DNA of 64,000 bases from Escherichia coli (GTDB taxonomy: Bacteria; Pseudomonadota; Gammaproteobacteria; Enterobacterales; Enterobacteriaceae). Shown here in pieces: positions 1,985 through 60,082 of this stretch. A program made the position numbers and the translations under genes. The notes under the pieces are model-generated. The model was not told where the DNA came from. It saw only the letters and a program-made list of their open reading frames with translations, and ran no database searches. Numbering within the stretch: position 1 is the first letter of the stretch; every line of letters begins with the position of its first letter. Location: assembly GCA_009729775.1 (NCBI GenBank), contig GCA_009729775.1_4081.1, one strand, 5' to 3'.

Positions 1985-2413
1985 TTAGTTAATAATAAAG
2001 GTAATTTCAGGATTCATTTCCGAAACTGCATTGCGTTTACTTCTATCCCATAGTATTCTGTTATTATACAAAGAAGAATCACATACGACAAGTAAGCAAT
2101 TTCTTAATCTACTTACAGTACTTTGATTATTTAAATCAGTTTCTGAGATAAAAAATACATTTTCAGGAACTACTAAAGGAATAGATTTATCAAAAAACAA
2201 AACTACAATAGGTCTTGTTGTATGAACTGATTTAACAAAATCCAAAATACTATTATAAAAATTAGTTTCTTTAGTAATTACTGACGGATCTTTAATTCTT
2301 TTCAAATATTGCTGTGGTAATTGATGTTCGTCTTTTATCTGAAACTCAAAATATTCTTTGAATAACATTTGTGTTAATTCAGATTTATCGGATATTTTCG
2401 TTGTGTTACTCAT
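1985..2413 (-). CDS. hypothetical protein (142 aa)
   Basis: ORF track. Confidence 0.6.
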   Translation of the reverse strand: MSNTTKISDKSELTQMLFKEYFEFQIKDEHQLPQQYLKRIKDPSVITKETNFYNSILDFVKSVHTTRPIVVLFFDKSIPLVVPENVFFISETDLNNQSTVSRLRNCLLVVCDSSLYNNRILWDRSKRNAVSEMNPEITFIIN

Positions 2414-2496
2414 TCACTTCGTTCTCTCGTAACTCAAGAAGTCACTGCGTTTACTTCGTAAACTAGTTCCTTCTGAAAATGATAATGTACTTTAAA

Positions 2497-3068
2497 AACT
2501 TGACGGGATTTGTTGAGGACTATTACATCCCCCCGCAGGGGAATGAAGGTAATAAAAAAGAGACAATTAAGTCTCTCTTGACGATGATGGCATCGGATAT
2601 TATCGAATTGCGAATTTCTCAAATTTTGGACGGATCTTTCTTGTACCAAAATTTAGAGAGCGAAAGCGGGTTGCTCGGTTTCTCTCTATCGCAGTCATAT
2701 GCAACGGTCGCTGGTCTTTTCATCAACAGCACTCAGTACTAACTCTATTCGATCAAAGTAGTACTTGTTCTCAAATTTTGGACGCAACTTTCTTGTAAAA
2801 ATTGCGTCCGCTATCCTTGAACTCCCTTAGCAAATCTGGTAAGGTGCGAACCTTATACATCTATCTAGGAACTCTCTGTATGCTTATCGGAGTTCTTTAT
2901 ACAGCCGTGTCGCCGTGATTCGTGGTCTTACATCGTGTTTGTTTAAATGCCAGTACTCTAACAGGTTTCTTCTGCTGTTCGCTACAACGGTAAAGCTCAT
3001 CTATCCTTTACATTTTCAAGAGAAGTAGGTTCTCAGTGTCCATTTTTCAATGTCCGTTGTCATTTTCT
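2497..3068 (-). ncRNA. candidate large structured noncoding RNA, copy A (paralog of 58627..59162); identity unknown
   Basis: ~690 nt gap without credible ORF in an otherwise gene-dense genome; local GC ~50% vs ~33% background; blocks conserved with copy B (CCCCGCAGGGG, GAAAGCGGGTTGCTC.GTTTCTCTCTATCGC, GCAACGGTCG..GGTCTT, TTTGGACGCAACT, GGTAAGGTGCGA.CCTTATA, AGGAACTCTCT...GGAGTTCTTTATACAGCCG, TGCTGTTCG); conserved stems with variable loops; TGATATAAT extended -10 on minus strand at 3075-3083; strand and ends approximate. Confidence 0.45.
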
Positions 3069-3074
3069 ATATAC

Positions 3075-3103
3075 ATTATATCATTGGAACATATAATGTC
3101 CCA
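3075..3103 (-). promoter_or_regulatory. extended -10 promoter (TGaTATAAT) with upstream imperfect palindrome TGGGACAT-N3-ATGTTCCA, reading into ncRNA copy A
   Basis: plus-strand attatatca at 3075-3083 = TGATATAAT on minus; palindrome 3085-3103 resembles the one at 28306-28326. Confidence 0.4.
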
Positions 3104-3580
3104 TTACATGTATACTTTTTTTAAATCCTTAGAACAACGATCAAAAATTGTGTTTATGAATTCAACATCTTCGATAATATTCGAATCGTTAGCAACATTT
3201 TCATTTCTTGTCGTGTTCCTATATGTGTGTTCAGGATGATTGTATACCACCTTGACTACATTATTTAGGTCTATAAAATTTGACGTTTTTTGTGTATAAG
3301 AAGCCTGAAGCTTGATGAGTTTACCATCATTCTCAAGATTGGTTTTATGAATTAGTTCTTCAATGCCAGTTAAATGGCTATAGCTATCTTTTTCTTTTAC
3401 AAAAGTAATAGTAACAAGAACTGCTTTCTCATCTCCCATATCGGAAATGTTTTTTACAGCACTGATAATTTCTAAGTTTGAAAAATCTAATTCTTTAAGC
3501 ATTTTACAAATATTTCCACAAAGTTCGATAAGTGATAATTTCTTCTCTGGTAACAGAAACTTCATTGCACTTAACACCAT
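3104..3580 (-). CDS. hypothetical protein (up to 158 aa; true start probably internal)
   Basis: ORF track; 5' end overlaps 3504..3860 by 77 nt so a downstream start is likely. Confidence 0.5.
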   Translation of the reverse strand: MVLSAMKFLLPEKKLSLIELCGNICKMLKELDFSNLEIISAVKNISDMGDEKAVLVTITFVKEKDSYSHLTGIEELIHKTNLENDGKLIKLQASYTQKTSNFIDLNNVVKVVYNHPEHTYRNTTRNENVANDSNIIEDVEFINTIFDRCSKDLKKVYM

Positions 3581-5752: not shown

Positions 5753-8542
5753 TTATAAATCACGGAAACGATTTGGTGTGTTTAAACGATACATTGAGTA
5801 CAATCCCAATCCACGCATAATCTCACCTGCCCAGAAACCAAAAAACATACCATTATCAGTACCTTCTCTGACTGCTGGACTCCATGAACCATTCATTGGA
5901 GAACCTGGACTTACAATAACATAGTTCTTTTGAAGTTCGAGAACTAAGTTATCAGCGAGTGTTGTTAGACCTTCTATTTTACATCCAGCCAATCCAGCAG
6001 CACAAGCCCCAGCTAACCACAACCCACACATATGACCTGTAAAGTCCCAATCTGGACCTTCAACTGTGCCATCTTTATTGAAGATTGTTGGTGAACGACC
6101 ATCATTATCTTTTTGAAATTGAATTAAAAAGTGAATCCAATTCTCACAAAATTCAACAAGATCTGCTGGTGGTTCAATTCCTCTCTCTGCGAGTTCTTGC
6201 CATGCTCTGGCAGCCCCAAAGAACGCACGTGGTTCATACCCACTCCATGCTTGATCACCCCAATGTAGCATAGTAAATGTATCTGGTTCACCATATTTTA
6301 AGTTATCCCAGCGGTTCCAAACATATGCTTGTGCACATGGACCAACAGTACCGAATTGTTGAGTAAACCATGTTTGAGAATCTTTCATAAAGCTTAACAT
6401 GTTGCCTAAACGTGTGTTATCAACTGGTTGGTCTTTAAAACAATATATCACTGGATACTGATAACCAGGATAAGGCAAACCACGCCAACCTGAATACTGA
6501 TTCGCATACGGGTCAGTGATGTTAGAAAATGGTATTGTTCCTGGAGTGTAATGCAATGAGTTTAACAAATAATCTTTGATTACACAATCCCCTAACTGTG
6601 CAGTATAAGGTGATTCACCTGCAATTGTTATTGAAAATGTCATGGTATAGTCATCACCGTCAGCATCCGTATATAATTCTGGAATGTCATTAATACAATA
6701 CCAATCAATTATTGCAGCAACGCCATCTACTGGGGTTGTATCAGGTAAAATAGTAATATCTTCTAGCTCACTATAAACTGGTGCATCTGGTCTTGGGTCA
6801 GAACTTGGATGATTTGGCTGATACCCAGATAAACGTAATGTATCAGAACTTAGTGTGATAGTAGTCCATTCCCCGTGTGTTGCAGGAATCATCCACCACC
6901 ATCTCCAACCATTATCATCTATAATTCGTATATTATAATCATCTTCATATGAACGATATGTGAAAGATTTAACTTCAGACTTATTTGTTGCTAATAACCA
7001 AAATCCAATAACAGCACCATCATCTTCACCACAAACCAACTGATTAATTGTATCGCGTCTTGTGATTAATATATCAGTACTATATAACATTTCGGACGTA
7101 GCTGCACCATAAGGAACAACAATTCTACTATCAGCAATTATATAAGGGGAACCATCTGCTTTCTTTTCTCTAACAAATGCACTTAACGGTGTTAATGAAT
7201 GTGTGATATTTTGGTCTTTACTTTCTGGTAAGCCGCAACGATAACGAACAACATCATGGTCATTTTTTGTTTTTGACAATTCCAGTACTGGTTTAAATGA
7301 TAACGGTTTACCATCATCGCACACGCCACCATAGTCAACTAGCAATTTTGAATCAGCATTTACCCTGAACCAAATAGCTTGTTGCTCCATAGTACTCTGT
7401 GCACTTTGGTCTTGTCTGATAGTAATGTATCCTAACGAATTTCTACCAAACTTAGCAATAGCATCACTTGGATAAAAATATTCATAGGAAATACCATCAG
7501 TGAATGGTGTGGTTACAATTGTACTTTGTCTGAAAAATTTATCTCTGGAGTCGATATCACCATAAGCATAGCATGTGAGTAGTGAACATTTCCAACCCAA
7601 ATAATGTTTTCTTTCTTTAGTTATTTTATATAACAAATACGAAGCATCACTAAACCATAATTCTGCATCTGATGCGTTATCAGCAAATTCTAAATCAATT
7701 GGAACATGAAGTGGGCGGTTGTGTTGCATTTCATTTCGTTGAATTATTACACCACCATATTCTACTGGTTGACGATTAGCAAAATTTAATTTATATACAC
7801 CATTAATTGTTGTATTCTTTAATTGAACAGTTCCTTTTTCAGATTCGTCAAAACCTTCTGCTAAAATATTACCATCCCAGTCGATTTTTCTACCCATGAA
7901 ATCAATAATCCAGTCAACATCATATTGTTCACCTGGTGTATCCCAATCAACACTACCATCTGGTAATAAAGCTTTTACTGACGCATTTATTTGGTTCCAT
8001 GCTAAAGCACCTTTGAATGCAAATGTCACTTTATCCAAGAACTGACCATAATATGGTGCACCATGTGGTATTTTGCATTGACCATTAGTAAATGTAAATT
8101 CTACTCCCTTGAAACCACCATGTGTGGGCCAGCCATCATCAGCTAAAGGCCAGTTAGCCAATATAGGTTCTTTTGCATTAACTATCCAGTTACATTGTAG
8201 CGGTGTAGGTGGATCTGGTAATTCACGTCCAGCATAAAAGTACTGATGATATGCGTCCCAATACCACTTTGCCTTATCTAAAAACAATGGATCATTTGTA
8301 GCCAGATATGCATAAATGTATCCTAAAATTAATAGACTTTGACCTTCTGTTGTCCCGTCACCGTTTGGTTGACCTTCCATTGCAGAATAGTTAATAAAAT
8401 GGCGGTTGTTCGCCAAAACACCCTGATTGTTCACCACATAATGCTGTACTGTTGGATCTATAGTATCACCAGTATTTCTTTCAATAAATTTGTGATGCCC
8501 ATAAAGAAGTTGTACAATATTATCAATATTATTGTTTAACAT
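5753..8542 (-). CDS. large protein (929 aa), possibly tail-associated with glycosidase-like C-terminal region
   Basis: long ORF ending the tail-fiber-containing transcription unit; Trp/Gly-rich, C-terminal segment reminiscent of alpha/alpha-toroid glycoside hydrolases (weak, by eye). Confidence 0.65.
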   Translation of the reverse strand: MLNNNIDNIVQLLYGHHKFIERNTGDTIDPTVQHYVVNNQGVLANNRHFINYSAMEGQPNGDGTTEGQSLLILGYIYAYLATNDPLFLDKAKWYWDAYHQYFYAGRELPDPPTPLQCNWIVNAKEPILANWPLADDGWPTHGGFKGVEFTFTNGQCKIPHGAPYYGQFLDKVTFAFKGALAWNQINASVKALLPDGSVDWDTPGEQYDVDWIIDFMGRKIDWDGNILAEGFDESEKGTVQLKNTTINGVYKLNFANRQPVEYGGVIIQRNEMQHNRPLHVPIDLEFADNASDAELWFSDASYLLYKITKERKHYLGWKCSLLTCYAYGDIDSRDKFFRQSTIVTTPFTDGISYEYFYPSDAIAKFGRNSLGYITIRQDQSAQSTMEQQAIWFRVNADSKLLVDYGGVCDDGKPLSFKPVLELSKTKNDHDVVRYRCGLPESKDQNITHSLTPLSAFVREKKADGSPYIIADSRIVVPYGAATSEMLYSTDILITRRDTINQLVCGEDDGAVIGFWLLATNKSEVKSFTYRSYEDDYNIRIIDDNGWRWWWMIPATHGEWTTITLSSDTLRLSGYQPNHPSSDPRPDAPVYSELEDITILPDTTPVDGVAAIIDWYCINDIPELYTDADGDDYTMTFSITIAGESPYTAQLGDCVIKDYLLNSLHYTPGTIPFSNITDPYANQYSGWRGLPYPGYQYPVIYCFKDQPVDNTRLGNMLSFMKDSQTWFTQQFGTVGPCAQAYVWNRWDNLKYGEPDTFTMLHWGDQAWSGYEPRAFFGAARAWQELAERGIEPPADLVEFCENWIHFLIQFQKDNDGRSPTIFNKDGTVEGPDWDFTGHMCGLWLAGACAAGLAGCKIEGLTTLADNLVLELQKNYVIVSPGSPMNGSWSPAVREGTDNGMFFGFWAGEIMRGLGLYSMYRLNTPNRFRDL

Positions 8543-10481: not shown

Positions 10482-10879
10482 AGATAAATTGTTAACTCCT
10501 TTAAGAAACCATTATAATAACGATTAAAGTCATGTTCTAATGTTTTATAATCATCAAAACTAAAACCTAAATTGATAATTGTATCTTCTTGAAAGAAAGT
10601 TTCTTCATTCATACATTCAATAGGTTCGTAATTAATTCCACCTTTGAAAACTTTTGTAAAAAACATTCCATCATTATTAATTTCAACATACATAAAATTA
10701 TTTTCTGGATCACGAGGACAGACGATATTCAGTGAACTATTTCCACTTGTATTGTACTCATAAGAAATTATATCAAAAGAATCAATACCATAACACTTAG
10801 ATTTTTCTTTATCGCCAAATACTTTTCTATCTGTACTCATATTGCGTATAGTGCTATAGATATCATCAACTGTAGTCAT
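10478..10879 (-). CDS. hypothetical protein (133 aa)
   Basis: ORF track; ATGA overlap with neighbours. Confidence 0.55.
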   Translation of the reverse strand: MTTVDDIYSTIRNMSTDRKVFGDKEKSKCYGIDSFDIISYEYNTSGNSSLNIVCPRDPENNFMYVEINNDGMFFTKVFKGGINYEPIECMNEETFFQEDTIINLGFSFDDYKTLEHDFNRYYNGFLKELTIYL

Positions 10880-15894: not shown

Positions 15895-18591
15895 TTACCA
15901 GTTTATGGTTCCTGTTTGTGATGGTAGACCGTAGCTAACTGGGAACGATGAACCTGCTGATTCAAGTGAAGCACCAAATATATCTAAACGGGAACGTTTT
16001 TGTATATTAATTGTTTCGATTTGAATTGCATTAGTTTGAATAGTACCTATCCAAAAAATATTATATGCAGTTGTTCCTGTTTCAGAAATAACATCAGTAG
16101 TTATGTAATAGTTTGCCAATCCTTGTTCCAATTTAACATATACATAGAATGTTGTATTTGCTGGATTAGACTTAATAGTTCTCAAATCAATATTTGAAAC
16201 TGGTAGTGAAAATGACTTACCTGAAAGAATAACAGGTGTTTCCTCAGTAAAATAAACAATAAATCCTTGTGCAACGTCCTGTGACACTAAGTTAATTGGG
16301 CTACCTTGAGCAGTCCAGTTATTATAGTCTGTAATCGTTGTCCCATATTTTTTGAATGTCATTTTATTTGAGTAATCCATTGGCTCCAAAATTCCAAAAC
16401 CAATACCAGGTAATGCTGCGGGTTGACTTCCTTGTTCATAACTGGCATGAGATCCAGTAATAATAAAACTTGTAAATTGTGCAGTTGATTTAGTTACATA
16501 TGCTCTAAATTGATGAGTTGCAGTATTACCTATTGTTGGATGTGTTAATGGGTCAGAACCACCAATGAAGTAGAATGAACCACCATCATATATTGTCAAA
16601 CCAACAGAAGAAGATGCAATCGAACCATTCCCATTTGGTGTAAAGTTATCACCATATGTATTTTCAAGTACTAAACGCTTGAATGTAATAGATGTAATAT
16701 TACCAACTCTAGTATTAACATTAACTTCAGCAATTCTAATATAGTTTCTATAATCATTAGTAACTGTACTCAACATAACGAAAGCAGGAATGTCTGTTTG
16801 TTGCGGAACAAATAGTGTCATATCACGGTATGCTTGTGCTGATAAATTCCAATCACTTAGAACTTTCGCATATTCAGCATTTCTAAAATTATCAAGTACT
16901 GATTGTGTTACACTTATAATACCTGTACCATTTAAGTTTTTATCATAGGATAAAGATTGTGAATAACGTTGTCCAACCATAAAAATACCACCATTGGTTG
17001 TGACAGTTGACCCAGAAATACTACTAATAAAAATTCTATTATTTGCATTATCATCAACATTAGCACGTTCAACTGTAGGTTCATAACCTTGTATTGTTCC
17101 TAAAGATAATGATTTAAATGTAAAATTAGGAGTACTTTTATGAACTGCATATGATGGTCTAAATCCACCACTACCCGAAGCACGTGAATATTGTTTAGTA
17201 CTGTTATCTGGTAGTAATTCCACACCATTAATAAATGAGCCTACGGCTGAACCAAATGATGGACGAACTATTCCACCTTTGAAATCAGTTGATAGTACTG
17301 CACGGACATTCAGCATACTATAAACTATTTGAATAGGAAACTTAGCTTTTTGCATAAGTAATGGTTCTGCTAAGTTTGGACATGCAGTACAAAATGCTTC
17401 ACCAGAATTTAAATAAAAATAAGAACTGTAAATATTCCTTGCATTTGCATGGTTATACAATGGATCGTTATTTAAAACGTTACCAGTAGGAACTAATGCT
17501 GAACCAGTATCCGTTATAACTAATGGTGCTTGGTATGAACCAATATCATTACCCGCATCTAATGTACATTGTTTAGTACTCATATTGAATACAAAACTGT
17601 AACTATGTTGTGGTCGTGTATTATAAGTTGCCATTGTAAACCAAGCATCACCATTCATTCTAAAGCGGAAATTCTGTGTACCTGGCTGCTGTGCAACATA
17701 TAAATCGATTGATGTCATGTAAATCCCAATACCACGTAGATTTTTTGGAACATACACATAAGGTTTATCAGCGATATTCGTTGATGTTACCTGATTAGTT
17801 ATAACCATATTATTTTGTGCAGAATAAGTTGTATTATAAAATGTTTTAGTAGTCCATCCAGTAATACGAGTTGCTGTATAAGTGCCATTACTGATATTAT
17901 AAACAACTTTAACTACAACTAATTGTAATTGGTTATTTGCATTAAGTACGTTGAAAACATATATAGAACCATCTTCTGCCATCATAGCATATTCAATACC
18001 ACCTTCAGGTGATATATCTGCTTGGTTAACGAAAAAACCAGTATGCAATTTATCATCTAATGTACCATTGGTAATTGATATAAACAAACCATTAGTACTG
18101 TTAGAAGTGTCAATATATCTACCGAGTAAAATATTTGGATCAGTATTGTATAAACCAATCGCAACTCGATTTGAACCAAAAAATCCAGGCTTGTATTGAC
18201 GACTTGTGTTAATTGTACGGCTCATGTCATCAACTGATAATGCGTTAGCTAAATATGAATAAAATAATCCCTCAACACTACCGTTTGTCCCACTACGTAA
18301 AAGCACTAGTGTACCATCGTTTTCTAATAAAATTTTATTTCTACGTTGTGTCTGGTTTTCTGATGCACCATTGAAATCTCCAGAAACACCCGCAGGTAGA
18401 TAGTTTTGTGAACCATAATGGGAGATTGGCATCATACTTACTATATCTAGTACTTCATCTCTTGAATAAGTATCTAGCTCCATATTGCCATTAGCATCAA
18501 ATACTTGATCATTGATACCTTGTATTGTTCTTTTACCATTAACTGTCACATTATGTGTGACATCCAAGCCACCATATATTTTCTTTGACAT
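15895..18591 (-). CDS. tail-fiber-like protein, paralog A (898 aa)
   Basis: long Gly/Ser/Thr/Asn-rich ORF; shared N- and C-terminal modules with 12550..15279; T4-type late promoter upstream. Confidence 0.65.
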   Translation of the reverse strand: MSKKIYGGLDVTHNVTVNGKRTIQGINDQVFDANGNMELDTYSRDEVLDIVSMMPISHYGSQNYLPAGVSGDFNGASENQTQRRNKILLENDGTLVLLRSGTNGSVEGLFYSYLANALSVDDMSRTINTSRQYKPGFFGSNRVAIGLYNTDPNILLGRYIDTSNSTNGLFISITNGTLDDKLHTGFFVNQADISPEGGIEYAMMAEDGSIYVFNVLNANNQLQLVVVKVVYNISNGTYTATRITGWTTKTFYNTTYSAQNNMVITNQVTSTNIADKPYVYVPKNLRGIGIYMTSIDLYVAQQPGTQNFRFRMNGDAWFTMATYNTRPQHSYSFVFNMSTKQCTLDAGNDIGSYQAPLVITDTGSALVPTGNVLNNDPLYNHANARNIYSSYFYLNSGEAFCTACPNLAEPLLMQKAKFPIQIVYSMLNVRAVLSTDFKGGIVRPSFGSAVGSFINGVELLPDNSTKQYSRASGSGGFRPSYAVHKSTPNFTFKSLSLGTIQGYEPTVERANVDDNANNRIFISSISGSTVTTNGGIFMVGQRYSQSLSYDKNLNGTGIISVTQSVLDNFRNAEYAKVLSDWNLSAQAYRDMTLFVPQQTDIPAFVMLSTVTNDYRNYIRIAEVNVNTRVGNITSITFKRLVLENTYGDNFTPNGNGSIASSSVGLTIYDGGSFYFIGGSDPLTHPTIGNTATHQFRAYVTKSTAQFTSFIITGSHASYEQGSQPAALPGIGFGILEPMDYSNKMTFKKYGTTITDYNNWTAQGSPINLVSQDVAQGFIVYFTEETPVILSGKSFSLPVSNIDLRTIKSNPANTTFYVYVKLEQGLANYYITTDVISETGTTAYNIFWIGTIQTNAIQIETINIQKRSRLDIFGASLESAGSSFPVSYGLPSQTGTINW

Positions 18592-28294: not shown

Positions 28295-28326
28295 ATTATA
28301 TCATGTATGGGACATAATGTCCCATA
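28295..28326 (-). promoter_or_regulatory. extended -10 promoter (TGaTATAAT) overlapped upstream by a 21-bp palindrome TATGGGACA-N3-TGTCCCATA (candidate operator)
   Basis: plus attatatca 28295-28303; palindrome 28306-28326; RBS and ATG of 28075..28263 follow. Confidence 0.5.
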
Positions 28327-42805: not shown

Positions 42806-43564
42806 TTACCTTTTGAAACGATTGAATGAGTACTCATCTTTTTCTTTACGTAAGTATCTCATTCCACCACTTTGTGGAGTAGCGAGAGTTAAGTCACCCG
42901 TCAAGAACTGACTATCAATCCATATGCGATTTCCGTAAATGAGTGGGTCTGTAACTGCTGTATGTCCACTAAAGACACAATGCACTCCATCTAACTTAGG
43001 TGCATAATATGTATTATTAGTTCTACAATAATCGAATGTTTTTCTATCCCACAAGCACTTATCAATTATATCAGCACTAAGTGATTTTGTCCCATTGACA
43101 AATCGTTCCCATGTTGTATATTCCAACGGAACTCCAGCATGAACTAACCCAATCTTCAATCCTCGGTGATTGATTTGGATAATCATAGGGAGATCCTTTA
43201 AGTACTGACGAAAGAATTGAATGCCTGTTCCCCCAACTTCATCAAGGAATTTATCACCACCATTACTTATCCAACAGTGATACCAATCTCGAAGTGTTTC
43301 CGAATCAACGCACATCATCTCATGATTACCAGCAATCATGTAACGATTTTCTCCGAACAAAAATTCAAAAAGGAGCTTTGAATTTTGTTCTCCACGGTCG
43401 ATAATATCACCTACACTGAAAACATAATCATTGTGTGTAATACCAAATTCTTTCACTGTAGCATCCCATAGTTTACCATTACCATGCAAATCACCTACAA
43501 TGTATAAATCTTTATCATCAGGTACGGTTACTTCTAAGAAGTGTTTCATTATTACTCCAACCAT
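42806..43564 (-). CDS. Ser/Thr protein phosphatase, lambda-PPase-like metallophosphatase (252 aa)
   Basis: GDLHGN, GDIIDRG, GNHE motifs; true start probably the internal MKHF. Confidence 0.75.
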   Translation of the reverse strand: MVGVIMKHFLEVTVPDDKDLYIVGDLHGNGKLWDATVKEFGITHNDYVFSVGDIIDRGEQNSKLLFEFLFGENRYMIAGNHEMMCVDSETLRDWYHCWISNGGDKFLDEVGGTGIQFFRQYLKDLPMIIQINHRGLKIGLVHAGVPLEYTTWERFVNGTKSLSADIIDKCLWDRKTFDYCRTNNTYYAPKLDGVHCVFSGHTAVTDPLIYGNRIWIDSQFLTGDLTLATPQSGGMRYLRKEKDEYSFNRFKR

Positions 43565-57971: not shown

Positions 57972-58592
57972 TTAGAGACAGTTGTGTACTATCTTATCAA
58001 AAGTACTACTGTCAATGTTATATTCATATAAAAATTTAAAATGTGAACCGTAACGCATCATCAGATTAAACTCTTCTTCAGTATTGAACTTGTAATCATG
58101 AATAGTCTCAGGGGTACATTTTAAACCCAAGAACTCTATAATTTCAGATGTTACATCATATCCTGAATTGAAGTATTTAACCCAAACACATTTTCCTTGT
58201 GGGTTGTATTTTCTATATTCTCCTTCTAGTTCTCCTTTAATAATATGAGCCTTAACACTTATTGAATTATTACTATATCTTTCTTCAAAATAATTACCAT
58301 ACTGGGCTTTTGATATTGTTGGTTTTTGAGTAGGAAGTAATTTAACTGAAGTCACTTCAATTCCATTTTGTAATTCCTTTATATAAGAAATGCATCCTTT
58401 TTCTTTAATAACCACATATCCAGTAAAGATATCTTCGTCTTGTGATTGATTAATGCAATCATCAAAATTCAAAGTTTTATAAGTAACAGTTTTTTCTTTT
58501 CTAATAAATGCCATCATTATTCCTATGGAAACATCAATGAATATACGTGACGTTGATTGCATCAACATCAGTAGAATTATCATGCTACGCAT
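57972..58592 (-). CDS. hypothetical protein (206 aa; start probably internal)
   Basis: ORF track. Confidence 0.5.
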   Translation of the reverse strand: MRSMIILLMLMQSTSRIFIDVSIGIMMAFIRKEKTVTYKTLNFDDCINQSQDEDIFTGYVVIKEKGCISYIKELQNGIEVTSVKLLPTQKPTISKAQYGNYFEERYSNNSISVKAHIIKGELEGEYRKYNPQGKCVWVKYFNSGYDVTSEIIEFLGLKCTPETIHDYKFNTEEEFNLMMRYGSHFKFLYEYNIDSSTFDKIVHNCL

Positions 58593-58626
58593 GTCTAATT
58601 CTACAAGTACTATTTTCTTTTAATTA

Positions 58627-59162
58627 ATATTGACGGGGTTTGCTTGAGCATATTTCATCCCCCCGCAGGGGAAAGAACAAAAAAATTTGACGCTGGTGGC
58701 CTTCACATAGTTCATATCACGAATTCTCTTACGAGACGAAAGCGGGTTGCTCTGTTTCTCTCTATCGCGGTTCTTGTAGCAACGGTCGTCGGTCTTAAAC
58801 ATCCCGACACATAATACAAATACCATATGACCAGTACTTGTATTTGATTTCACAAAATTTGGACGCAACTATATTGTATAATTCCGACCGCATATTTCTT
58901 ATGAAATCTCCCTTAGATAATTGGTAAGGTGCGATCCTTATATGTCTATCGAGGAACTCTCTTTATCCTATTGGAGTTCTTTATACAGCCGCATTGCCGT
59001 GAGTGGTTCAAACTATGCCATCATCTAACGGGTTTCATCTGCTGTTCGTACTGAAAGGACTACTCATCTACCCTCTACATTTTCGAGTGGATTAGGCTTT
59101 TAATCATTTCCTTATGGGAACCTTTCAGGATTAAAAAAGGTGACTAACATATTATGTTGTCA
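58627..59162 (-). ncRNA. candidate large structured noncoding RNA, copy B (paralog of 2497..3068); identity unknown
   Basis: ~600 nt without credible ORF; GC-enriched; same conserved blocks and stems as copy A; TGATATAAT on minus strand at 59169-59177 immediately upstream; strand and ends approximate. Confidence 0.45.
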
Positions 59163-59166
59163 CCTT
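59131..59166 (-). terminator. strong hairpin (AAGGTGACTAACAT/ATGTTGTCACCTT) plus U6; overlaps the transcription start of the promoter at 59169-59177
   Basis: ~13-bp stem with A6 on plus 59133-59138; downstream of stop of 59195..60082. Confidence 0.5.
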
Positions 59167-59168
59167 AT

Positions 59169-59177
59169 ATTATATCA
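59169..59177 (-). promoter_or_regulatory. extended -10 promoter element TGATATAAT reading into ncRNA copy B
   Basis: plus attatatca 59169-59177. Confidence 0.4.
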
Positions 59178-59194
59178 TTAACTTATCATTTGTC

Positions 59195-60082
59195 TCAGTT
59201 ATATTCGGTTTTTTCTGTGAAATTTGTTAGTATATCAACACTAAAACTTCGAATAACCTCAATCTTGCTTGGCATGAAACGGTGTTTATTTTTAATATAC
59301 AACTCATCATCTTCAATAAAAGATGTAAAAATGAATGCCATATCTTCACGTGGAATTTGTAAAATATCACACATTTCATTTGCCGATGCTACTGGTGAAT
59401 CATTATAGTACTGAGAGTATGCACTAGATTGGCGACCGATTATAATAGAATTTCTGATTAGAAAATTACTACAGTACTGAAAATCTTTGTAGTACTTTTC
59501 AATAATGTACGGCATAAGTGCTTCTTTCACGTCTTCATAACCATTAGTACTATCAATTGCTATACAGTAATCTTCACGTTCTTTTTTCTCATGATGGTAA
59601 TCATAAACATACTCAAAGAATGAATTTTTATTTAATGAATCATTTAAACCAACTGACCCACTATAGTATGATTTTCTATCATTCATTCGATCATCTGGGC
59701 ATGATGCATACATAGAAGTGTCATGTGATGATGTACCAATATAAATTTTCTTAGTAATATGATTATACGCTATGTAATCATAATCTTGAACTCCAGTCAG
59801 CATTAACTGGAACATTAAATCATCAGGAACATCAATTAACGGGTACTCAAACTTCGAATATCTACTGCGGCAGAAGTTCTTTTCAAATGCTCGGTATGCG
59901 ATAAAATCTTTTAGATTTTTACAAGATTCATGTTCATGAGCACTACTGCTACGTACATTGACATTAGTCGATGTGCAATATCCATCCGAATCTTCGGTGA
60001 AGTTACCAGCATAATCCTTATTGTAGTCAACGATTAGATAAAGTTTCATACATCTCCAGACAAAAAAAGGACGAGATAACAA
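59195..60082 (-). CDS. hypothetical protein (295 aa)
   Basis: ORF track. Confidence 0.55.
   Translation of the reverse strand: MLSRPFFVWRCMKLYLIVDYNKDYAGNFTEDSDGYCTSTNVNVRSSSAHEHESCKNLKDFIAYRAFEKNFCRSRYSKFEYPLIDVPDDLMFQLMLTGVQDYDYIAYNHITKKIYIGTSSHDTSMYASCPDDRMNDRKSYYSGSVGLNDSLNKNSFFEYVYDYHHEKKEREDYCIAIDSTNGYEDVKEALMPYIIEKYYKDFQYCSNFLIRNSIIIGRQSSAYSQYYNDSPVASANEMCDILQIPREDMAFIFTSFIEDDELYIKNKHRFMPSKIEVIRSFSVDILTNFTEKTEYN

Follow-up and report, generated by a model that had tools for sequence, protein, structure and literature searches.

Two elements in a 64-kb stretch of DNA from an Escherichia coli assembly (64,000 nucleotides (nt), hereafter the window) belong to a family of large structured RNAs that is well supported and apparently undescribed. 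The window is Asteriusvirus jumbo coliphage DNA, 99.9% identical to phage phAPEC6, and its minus strand, from which both elements would be read, carries nearly every gene. The elements are designated copy A (2497–3068) and copy B (58621–59168). That they are structured RNA genes we regard as close to certain, and it is probable that each is an autonomous gene of 480–560 nt on the minus strand whose folded product acts in trans, constituting a new class of large phage RNA. The evidence comes from compensatory base changes across homologs, from the arrangement of promoter and terminator-like signals, and from copies that reside in bacterial islands and temperate elements.

Two homologous non-coding elements

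Around copy A (2400–3110), identity is 99.9% to Escherichia phage vB_EcoM_phAPEC6 (MK817115.1 229428–230138; Asteriusvirus, 352.6 kb) and 95–99.9% to ~30 further jumbo coliphages of the PBECO4/121Q type. The initial annotation of the window had described two stretches that are homologous and share an orientation, and an alignment of ~530 nt with 76% column identity bears this out. The 16-mer GAGCAACCCGCTTTCG, common to both elements, occurs exactly twice in the window against 0.07 occurrences expected by chance, and the family profile matches the window at two places only, 2493–3071 (E 1e-127) and 58624–59133 (E 1e-121). All of the conserved sequence blocks listed in that annotation are found in both elements. 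The enrichment in G+C that it reported also holds, at 0.411 (2497–3068) and 0.398 (58621–59168) against 0.333 for the window, but the accompanying figure of ~50% does not. Both of the copies it counted are present in the window; the genome total is four, the other two lying beyond the window.

Neither stretch contains a credible open reading frame (ORF), as had been proposed, and 5–17 stop codons interrupt each of the six frames. Over 30 copies the longest stop-free stretch ranges from 46 to 110 amino acids (aa) and is unconserved, and column variability is without 3-nt periodicity (0.715, 0.741 and 0.745 for the three positions). Codon-like substitution patterns, which had been named as evidence that would overturn the RNA interpretation, were looked for across the homologs and none were seen.

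Secondary structure and covariation

A structure of 17 helices was read by hand, and its pairs were counted on a MAFFT alignment, blind to structure, of 30 non-redundant copies. Hidden Markov model (HMM) alignments and explicit pair counts were used over ~550 positions, and the controls consisted of the same structure slid by 1–3 columns and of 500 shuffles. Standard pairs occupy 94.2% of 2716 cells, compared with 39–43% in the slid controls and a mean of 78.6% in the shuffles, of which none (0/500) reached the observed value. Double-sided changes are found in 66 of 95 pairs (20–27 in the slid controls), compensatory cells number 417 (39–54), and the covariation score is 0.413 (0.05–0.08). Compensatory pairs thus exceed those of the controls, a generic mark of structured RNA. 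A lack of covariation had been named beforehand as a ground for rejecting an RNA; the homolog alignment gave the opposite result, with covariation abundant.

Among the 17 helices are two pseudoknots, PK1 and PK2, each individually supported. In the 30 copies, both helices of the first pseudoknot (PK1a and PK1b) are 100% paired and helix P10 is 99.3% paired, with compensatory variants of PK1 that include GUCAU/AUGAC, GUUAC/GUAAC, GGAAG/CUUCC, AGGGG/CCUCU and UGAAG/CUUCA. PK2 joins 7 nt of the P8 loop to the strand just 3′ of P10 and is 99.5% paired, its variants being AUCGAAU/AUUCGAU, AUUGUAU/AUACAAU, AUUGCAU/AUGCAAU, UCAUAU/AUAUGA, UUCAUGU/ACAUGAA and CUUGAAU/AUUCAAG. When every pair of columns in an HMM alignment of 51 sequences was scanned without bias, the same pairs ranked highest, and a helix that closes the module at site 1 (see below) and an extension of P5 were added. 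When the sample was enlarged to 80 distinct sequences, pairing was 92.2% overall, 100% in PK1a and PK1b, 99.8% in P10, 99.6% in PK2 and 99.5% in P4, and all seven PK2 pairs showed compensatory changes.

The strand proposed in the initial annotation for a large structured RNA, the minus strand, is supported along with the strong covariation itself. Folding gives z-scores of −4.10 (minus strand) and −2.24 (plus strand), and pairing amounts to 94.2% in the sense direction against 90.9% in antisense, a difference that comes from 140 G·U cells. Together with the position of the promoter and the orientation of the terminator-like hairpin, these two measures identify the minus strand as sense.

Promoters and anatomy of the unit

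A promoter-like sequence with an extended −10 element lies directly before each element:

3075–3102, minus strand: promoter of copy A, with the −35-like GGGACA (3097–3102), a 16-nt spacer and the extended −10 TGATATAAT (3075–3083); scored 10/12 with TG
59169–59196, minus strand: promoter of copy B, with GAGACA (59191–59196), a 16-nt spacer and TGATATAAT (59169–59177)

The same arrangement, TTTTTGGRACA followed after 16–17 nt by TGnTATAAT, is found at the same distance before nearly every homologous copy. The extended −10 had been presented in the initial annotation as a feature of the two elements, and its position before each of them stands, but it is not specific to them. The window holds 12 occurrences on the minus strand against one on the plus strand, which makes the sequence an ordinary promoter −10 of the gene array; the minus-strand set probably marks the early sigma-70 promoters of the phage. 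The other minus-strand sites are at 10767, 28295, 37611, 43065, 45315, 53085, 55236, 57193, 60875 and 62633, and GGGACA precedes the −10 also at 28295–28323 and 43065–43093.

Downstream of its promoter, copy A comprises the following features:

2554–3068, minus strand: RNA body, ~515 nt, with helices P1–P12 and pseudoknots PK1 and PK2; minimum free energy −150.7 kcal/mol, z = −4.10
2768–2803, minus strand: long-hairpin module, site 1, GGACGCAA...UUGCGUCC plus AAAAUUUGAG; optional
2745–2754, minus strand: 5′ strand of PK2, AUCGAAU, in the loop of hairpin P8; forms 7 bp with 2600–2610
2658–2709, minus strand: core, GACC and then PK1a (GUUGC/GCAAC) crossing PK1b (GAGAG/CUUUC), with the 5′ strand of P10 between them; an H-type pseudoknot
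2616–2653, minus strand: long-hairpin module, site 2, inserted at the tip of P11
2600–2610, minus strand: 3′ strand of PK2, AUUCGAU, immediately 3′ of P10
2577–2596, minus strand: hairpin P12, containing the repeat R1, AUCAUCGUCAAG (2577–2588), which covers part of the loop, the 3′ strand and the next 2–3 nt
2554–2576, minus strand: hairpin T followed by UUUUUU, intrinsic-terminator-like
2499–2547, minus strand: 3′ tail, consisting of hairpin H, UUCAUUCCCCUGCGGGGGGAUG (2526–2547), then CCUCAACAA, then the repeat R2, AUCCCGUCAAG (2499–2509)

The 5′ end of the copy A RNA is inferred to lie ~7 nt past the −10, and its 3′ end would be the U-run of hairpin T. The two long-hairpin modules form an internal repeat with 89% identity, and in relatives the module is placed at site 1, at site 2 or at both. 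Peripheral segments can also be reduced, as in two relatives in which a UUCG loop substitutes for the entire P5 insert.

Copy B follows the same plan, with differences at both ends:

58629–59162, minus strand: RNA body and tail, with no hairpin T; core at 58758–58787, PK2 strands at 58823–58832 and 58710–58718
58686–58697, minus strand: R1
58656–58677, minus strand: hairpin H
58629–58639, minus strand: R2
59133–59166, minus strand: hairpin with a U-run that overlaps the predicted start of the RNA, read from the sequence directly after the −10

Transcription of the upstream operon probably stops at the hairpin at 59133–59166, and two B-type relatives (L033 and L030) have an equivalent.

Across the family the RNA body measures 480–560 nt, and the order of parts is promoter, body, P12, an optional hairpin T with its U-run, and tail. 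Invariant single-stranded blocks are GAAAAUGUA, GAUGAG, AGAAGAAACCCGU, CACGGCAAUGCGGC, UAUAAAG, GAUAGACAUAUAAGG, CUAAGGGAG, GACCGUUGC and GAUAGAGAGAAACNGAGCAACCCGCUUUCG. Hairpin T is present in copy A and generally in A- and C-type copies, and is absent from copy B and from D-types; its stem covaries (AGAGAC/GUCUCU, GUACAC/GUGUAC, GAUCC/GGGUC), and a terminator scan flags its equivalent in copy C. The tail, in its family-wide form hairpin H UUCAUUCCCCUGCGGGGGGAUGAA followed by AAUUGCCUCAACAAAUCUCGUCAG, is found after every copy, and within it GGGGGGAUGAAA and CAAAYCNCGUCA are nearly invariant. The notion that the tail is an independent genomic motif was rejected, since it is always accompanied by the core and no tail motif without a core was found in IMG/VR.

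The coupled repeats R1 and R2

R1 (A-Y-C-A-N-C-G-U-C-A-R) is formed by the 3′ half of P12 and the next 2–3 nt, and R2 (A-Y-C-N-C-G-U-C-A-R) is the end of the tail. In 80 sequences these short direct repeats covary in identity and not in complementarity. At the Y position the two repeats are U/U in 61 sequences and C/C in 19, with no discordant case, and at the R position they are G/G in 42, A/A in 37 and discordant in 1. Rare changes affect R1 and R2 jointly, namely CUUCA in RaK2, UUGUCA in one metagenomic phage, and GCGUCA in Yen9-03 and XaC1. The 5′ strand of P12 changes register among lineages while the sequence of R1 stays constant. Possible explanations for the coupling are a single co-evolving reader of both sites, a switch whereby the P12 5′ strand would pair with one site or the other, or two chemically equivalent processing sites.

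Several pairing partners for the tail were considered and set aside. No clean covariation of any tail column with another column emerged from the 51-sequence scan. A helix closing the 5′ and 3′ ends is not general among the paralog types: UUGAYGAG after P1 complements R2 in Eneladus-type A copies, and UGAC..GGA does so in copy A. Pairing of GAUGAG in the J2/3 segment with CUCGUC in R2 is a recurrent best duplex, yet it does not covary; CCCGUC in Asteriusvirus gives an A–C mismatch, GUUGAG variants are uncompensated, and the duplex is broken in RaK2. The 3′ foot of hairpin H offers GAUGA, which fits R2 in the consensus but not in RaK2 or copy D. A micro-ORF in the tail, beginning at the AUG after the G-run, was likewise discarded, as an indel changes its frame and copy A has an immediate stop.

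Paralogs in jumbo phage genomes

All four copies in phAPEC6 lie on one strand:

40.2–40.6 kb: copy D, directly downstream of an RpoD-like sigma factor gene (MK817115.1 40704–41669; L024:426–1391)
150.7–151.3 kb: copy C, between a divergent EndoVII gene and convergent genes
229.4–230.1 kb: copy A
near 285.6–286.2 kb: copy B

Four to five copies are also found in Eneladusvirus, Mimasvirus (GAP32), CBB and the Yersinia fHe-Yen9 phages, as well as in Salmonella phages Munch and 7t3 and Xanthomonas phages XaC1 and XbC2, and Alcyoneusvirus (RaK2, K64-1) has at least two. A scan for further RaK2-type tails gave nothing beyond the second RaK2 copy; in its 3′ half this copy is nearly the same as the first and is therefore not an independent data point. 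On clustering, copies group by paralog type across genera. Gene context is conserved as well: EndoVII adjoins copy C in phAPEC6, GAP32 and EJP2, copy C lies between divergent EndoVII and convergent genes in phAPEC6, UE-S1, GAP32 and EJP2, and a Dam methyltransferase gene is found downstream of copy B both here and in RaK2. The clustering by type and the synteny imply that the duplications are older than the genera and that all paralogs have been kept; ancient paralogs at syntenic positions are probably not redundant. The genes that flank copy A are unrelated to those that flank copy B, so that the duplication covered only the non-coding unit, and paralogy of the flanking genes of these two copies was accordingly rejected.

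The distribution of the family was surveyed with a degenerate pattern of the core. In IMG/VR it found 40 loci, all on contigs of ~345–380 kb or their fragments, and in metagenomes 60 loci. Among 100,044 species-representative genomes it found 2 loci only. One of these is on an Enterobacteriaceae chromosome contig (WJYB01000004.1, L064), where an integrase adjoins the RNA, and the other is on a 2.8-kb contig binned as Clostridium (DPOH01000171.1, L065) that is probably a mis-binned fragment.

Copies in bacterial islands and temperate elements

The complete unit, with promoter, core, hairpins T and H and tail, is present in 2 chromosomes among 5,426 complete E. coli genomes, and a group of metagenomic loci carries the RNA in a second chromosomal setting:

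NZ_AP027515.1 3478976–3479465 (L136:11840–12500): E. coli LR-29-1, RNA gene in an island at ffs
NZ_CM130020.1 245292–245781 (L137): E. coli EEC_W5, RNA gene in an island at ffs
L086:8767–13745, L117:3733–11019, L090, L097, L114 and L120: metagenome loci with enterobacterial chromosomal flanks

This defence island is integrative, measures ~10.5 kb and lies beside ffs. Its proteins include one of 303 aa weakly similar to PDC-M01B and another of 257 aa, besides a tyrosine integrase that IS3 has split and a serine recombinase; its candidate defence genes are PDC-M45 (DuOB, DUF488) with mSLOG-DUF4326, and PDC-S16. No jumbo-phage relatives of the island proteins were found. The island RNA is 80.6% identical to the Eneladusvirus C-type. 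Since 83 of its 91 model pairs are canonical and 11 compensatory double changes separate it from its nearest phage relative, it has been kept as a folded RNA. Upstream of it, the non-coding segment L136:11265–11545 holds inverted copies of both island ends (7792–7956 and 18354–18493), pointing to two elements at ffs, in tandem or rearranged.

Strain RIT714 carries the RNA between an integrase and a CI-like repressor, with ~700 nt separating it from the integrase gene upstream. At the six metagenomic chromosomal loci it has a large serine recombinase on one side and a convergent CI-like (S24/HTH) repressor on the other, beyond which are a cro-like gene and a conserved 286-aa protein, with KwaB further along in L117. 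This integrase–RNA–repressor arrangement indicates that the family also resides in temperate elements, in the int–cI position, which is the usual place of functions expressed in the lysogen, such as exclusion. The occurrence of the bare RNA gene in islands and temperate elements marks it as a portable module, and on this sequence evidence it is predicted to function outside the jumbo-phage genome.

Comparison with known RNA families

The initial annotation had likened the elements to the large phage RNAs GOLLD and ROOL while matching them to no family and suspecting that they might be undescribed. Both parts of that view hold. The 4227 families of Rfam 15 were searched at gathering thresholds on the whole window and at permissive thresholds on the four paralog types and relatives. 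No family matched at the gathering threshold, and the permissive runs gave only chance matches to snoRNAs and small RNAs (sRNAs). The GOLLD model matched neither the window (gathering), nor copies A and B (E <=10 or 5), nor copies C and D and six relatives (E <=1), and the ROOL covariance model was likewise without a match in the window (gathering) and in the copies and relatives (permissive). RNase P RNA, transfer-messenger RNA (tmRNA) and HEARO gave no Rfam match in the window or the copies, and ARAGORN found no tRNA or tmRNA gene in the 64-kb window. Group I and group II introns gave no Rfam match either; a promoter lies directly upstream of the elements, and the flanking ORFs are complete and mutually unrelated. 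The neighbours encode DUF7325, a ferritin-like DUF5856 protein, Dam, an RpoD-like sigma factor, EndoVII and hypothetical proteins, and no gene for IscB, TnpB or a reverse transcriptase is among them. A full-text search of the literature found no description of the RNA, short fragments of which may figure among '10,006 viral csRNAs'.

GOLLD and ROOL, which are frequently found beside tRNA genes in phage or prophage genomes, appear to be the closest known things in kind. Like them, the present RNA is ~500 nt or more in length, intricately folded and non-coding, occurs in lytic phages and in integrated elements, is predicted to be an independent transcription unit, and surrounds a conserved core with variable peripheral hairpins. 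Unlike them, it has no covariance-model match, its copies have no adjoining tRNA genes (copies C and D are bordered by protein genes), it is maintained as 4–5 diverged syntenic paralogs per genome in jumbo phages with hosts of the Enterobacteriaceae type, and it bears a tail with the R1/R2 duplication. Since the membership tests that could be run all fail, the family is separate from GOLLD and ROOL. GOLLD, ROOL and OLE form homo-oligomeric RNA-only assemblies, as reported for GOLLD and ROOL from cryo-electron microscopy (PMC12286853).

Long non-coding RNAs (lncRNAs) are expressed by phages of this kind. The related jumbo phage PA5oct has four ORF-free 'putative lncRNA' loci, ncRNA001–004, of 236–619 nt, two of which are highly transcribed by RNA sequencing (PMC7318152). 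Homology to these was rejected for the two that were compared, as ncRNA002 and ncRNA004 show no similarity to the family (nhmmer, E up to 1e-3).

Function and alternative explanations

The proposal that we favour is an autonomous RNA gene with a trans-acting product. A host-type sigma-70 promoter with an extended −10 would drive synthesis of an RNA that folds into a multi-helix core, which the two pseudoknots would lock, the H-type PK1 being built around the invariant GACCGU...ACCCGC. Variable peripheral hairpins and the optional, movable module would decorate this core, and the unit would end with the intrinsic-terminator-like hairpin (copy A) and/or the conserved tail of hairpin H and R2. 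The product might be a ribozyme or the scaffold of a ribonucleoprotein (RNP), or it might play the part of decoy or competitor when phage and host, or two phages, are in conflict. A consensus promoter, a terminator-like hairpin, varied gene contexts and capture of the unit alone by bacterial islands are what an independent RNA gene would display. The elements are neither DNA elements nor leaders, and for copy C a leader role is impossible because it is flanked by divergent EndoVII and convergent genes. Action in trans is likely, in our judgement, because nothing follows copy C or the temperate-element copies on the same strand, because the unit travels alone among unrelated contexts, because it is under a degree of tertiary constraint normally seen in catalytic RNAs or RNP cores, and because several diverged paralogs are kept together.

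A number of observations weigh against this proposal. Transcription and both RNA ends are deduced from consensus motifs, and no partner protein, substrate or catalytic motif has been identified. The covariation statistics carry no phylogenetic correction, although the slid controls do retain the relatedness of the sequences. In copies A and C the tail is downstream of the terminator-like hairpin, which implies that it lies outside the main transcript there or that the hairpin is leaky. Copies A, B and D stand in co-directional arrays, where a cis effect on downstream transcription is possible.

A narrower version of the trans-acting proposal, which we put forward tentatively and hold to be rather less probable than its general form, assigns this double-pseudoknot RNA class to phage–phage or phage–host conflict. 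The phage RNA would be a ribozyme or RNP core, for which the island copies would act as competitors or decoys. Jumbo phages would then maintain 4–5 specialised paralogs under early-type promoters, and each temperate element or island would carry one copy. R1 and R2 might be equivalent sites for one co-evolving partner, with self-processing or excision of the T–H segment, or with a conformational switch.

Two alternatives place the function in cis, and both are possible for copies that are embedded in gene arrays. In one, the RNA and/or its tail would modify its own RNA polymerase and confer processive antitermination through the co-directional downstream arrays, after the manner of HK022 put, rrn boxB–boxA and lambda nut, with which the unit shares a promoter-proximal position, a tail of hairpin plus linear motif and two identity-covarying sites; the latter recall nutL and nutR co-evolving with N protein. 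Copies A, B and D do head minus-strand gene runs, and the tail motif UGCCUCAACAA bears a loose likeness to the rrn boxA UGCUCUUUAACAA, a resemblance that we take as a lead only. This is nevertheless unlikely. Copy C has no downstream same-strand gene in at least 4 genera, the temperate-element copies are convergent with the cI-like gene and lack a downstream target too, hairpin T, where present, is upstream of the tail, and after many copies the downstream genes have a separate TTGACA promoter. Known antitermination RNAs measure 70–120 nt, a fifth of the present size, and not 500 nt with two pseudoknots, and only 2 of the 12 minus-strand TGATATAAT promoters in the window carry the element. Slightly less likely still is an origin with a structured pre-primer RNA in the style of T4 oriF/oriG or of ColE1 RNA II, whose transcript passes into the origin and forms a persistent hybrid under the control of the antisense RNA I; here a hybrid near the G6/C4 tail would prime DNA synthesis. 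The layout, in which a sigma-70 promoter precedes a structured RNA of ~500 nt and a conserved motif containing an invariant GGGGGG follows, is reminiscent of such origins, as are the 4–5 dispersed copies per ~350-kb genome (T4 origins also being several and dispersed) and their single orientation in phAPEC6, and capture by integrative elements could mean that helper-phage replication is hijacked. In most copies, however, a terminator-like hairpin intervenes between RNA and tail, there is no antisense partner of the RNA I type, the cumulative GC skew has no inflection at either window copy, no initiator gene is consistently adjacent, and the downstream motif ACGAAGTGA is usually single, with no iteron array. 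Compensatory upkeep of two pseudoknots over ~480 nt also goes far beyond what priming needs.

The remaining alternatives concern the nature of the elements. That they are divergent members of a described family (GOLLD, ROOL, RNase P RNA, tmRNA, a group I or II intron, or HEARO/omega RNA) is very improbable. Their size and phage habitat resemble those of GOLLD and ROOL, and GACCGUUGCA...AGAGAGAAACCG is loosely like the J11/12 region of E. coli M1 RNA, again a lead only; yet copies A–D and their relatives match no Rfam 15 family at gathering thresholds or at E up to 1–10, ARAGORN reports no tmRNA or tRNA in the window, no flanking gene is split as it would be by an intron, and no IscB, TnpB or reverse transcriptase gene is adjacent. 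Least credible of all are a DNA-level repeat, whether a decayed mobile element or a site for recombination or packaging, and a hidden coding gene. Several database records do annotate short hypothetical ORFs or a 'repeat_region' at the elements, and R1 and R2 are direct repeats, but the compensatory pair changes, the many G·U pairs and the two pseudoknots are inexplicable at the DNA level. Stops in every frame, the missing codon periodicity and a tail indel that changes the frame while the nucleotides stay conserved speak against coding, and synteny across genera means that the elements are not actively mobile.

Flanking sequences and existing annotation

Directly downstream of copy A is a 142-aa ORF (1985–2413, minus strand) that is unannotated in the phAPEC6 record. 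That record places a plus-strand ORF, gp307, within the copy A RNA gene, and up to six 'hypothetical proteins' are annotated on the element in other records. The motif ACGAAGTGA (or ACGCAGTGA) occurs at 2414–2422 and 2442–2450 (minus strand) and nowhere else in the 64-kb window. It recurs in many relatives 40–55 nt downstream of the tail, often followed there by a conserved promoter-like block, GAAAATYCTTGAC, for the next genes. Iterons were considered and rejected, since ACGNAGTGA is found twice downstream of copy A, once in many relatives and not at all after copy B, and forms no array. After copy B, a 9-bp inverted repeat, GUAGAAUUA...UAAUUCUAC (58590–58625, minus strand), surrounds the annotated start codon of a 206-aa ORF.

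Implications

To our knowledge, few large RNAs with complex folds exist, and almost all of the well-understood ones are ribozymes or the cores of essential RNPs. The few orphan classes of large RNA (GOLLD, ROOL, OLE and raiA) are prime targets for structural and functional work. The present family adds to them an orphan class that occurs in the culturable E. coli phages phAPEC6, 121Q and PBECO4, and for which ~80 distinct sequences provide enough covariation for a detailed two-dimensional model with two pseudoknots. It also corrects public annotation, many records having placed 1–6 spurious 'hypothetical protein' ORFs on the RNA loci. The ancient set of paralogs invites questions of specialisation or hetero-assembly, and the intact copies in islands and temperate elements offer a genetic handle on function, for example through their effect on jumbo-phage infection.

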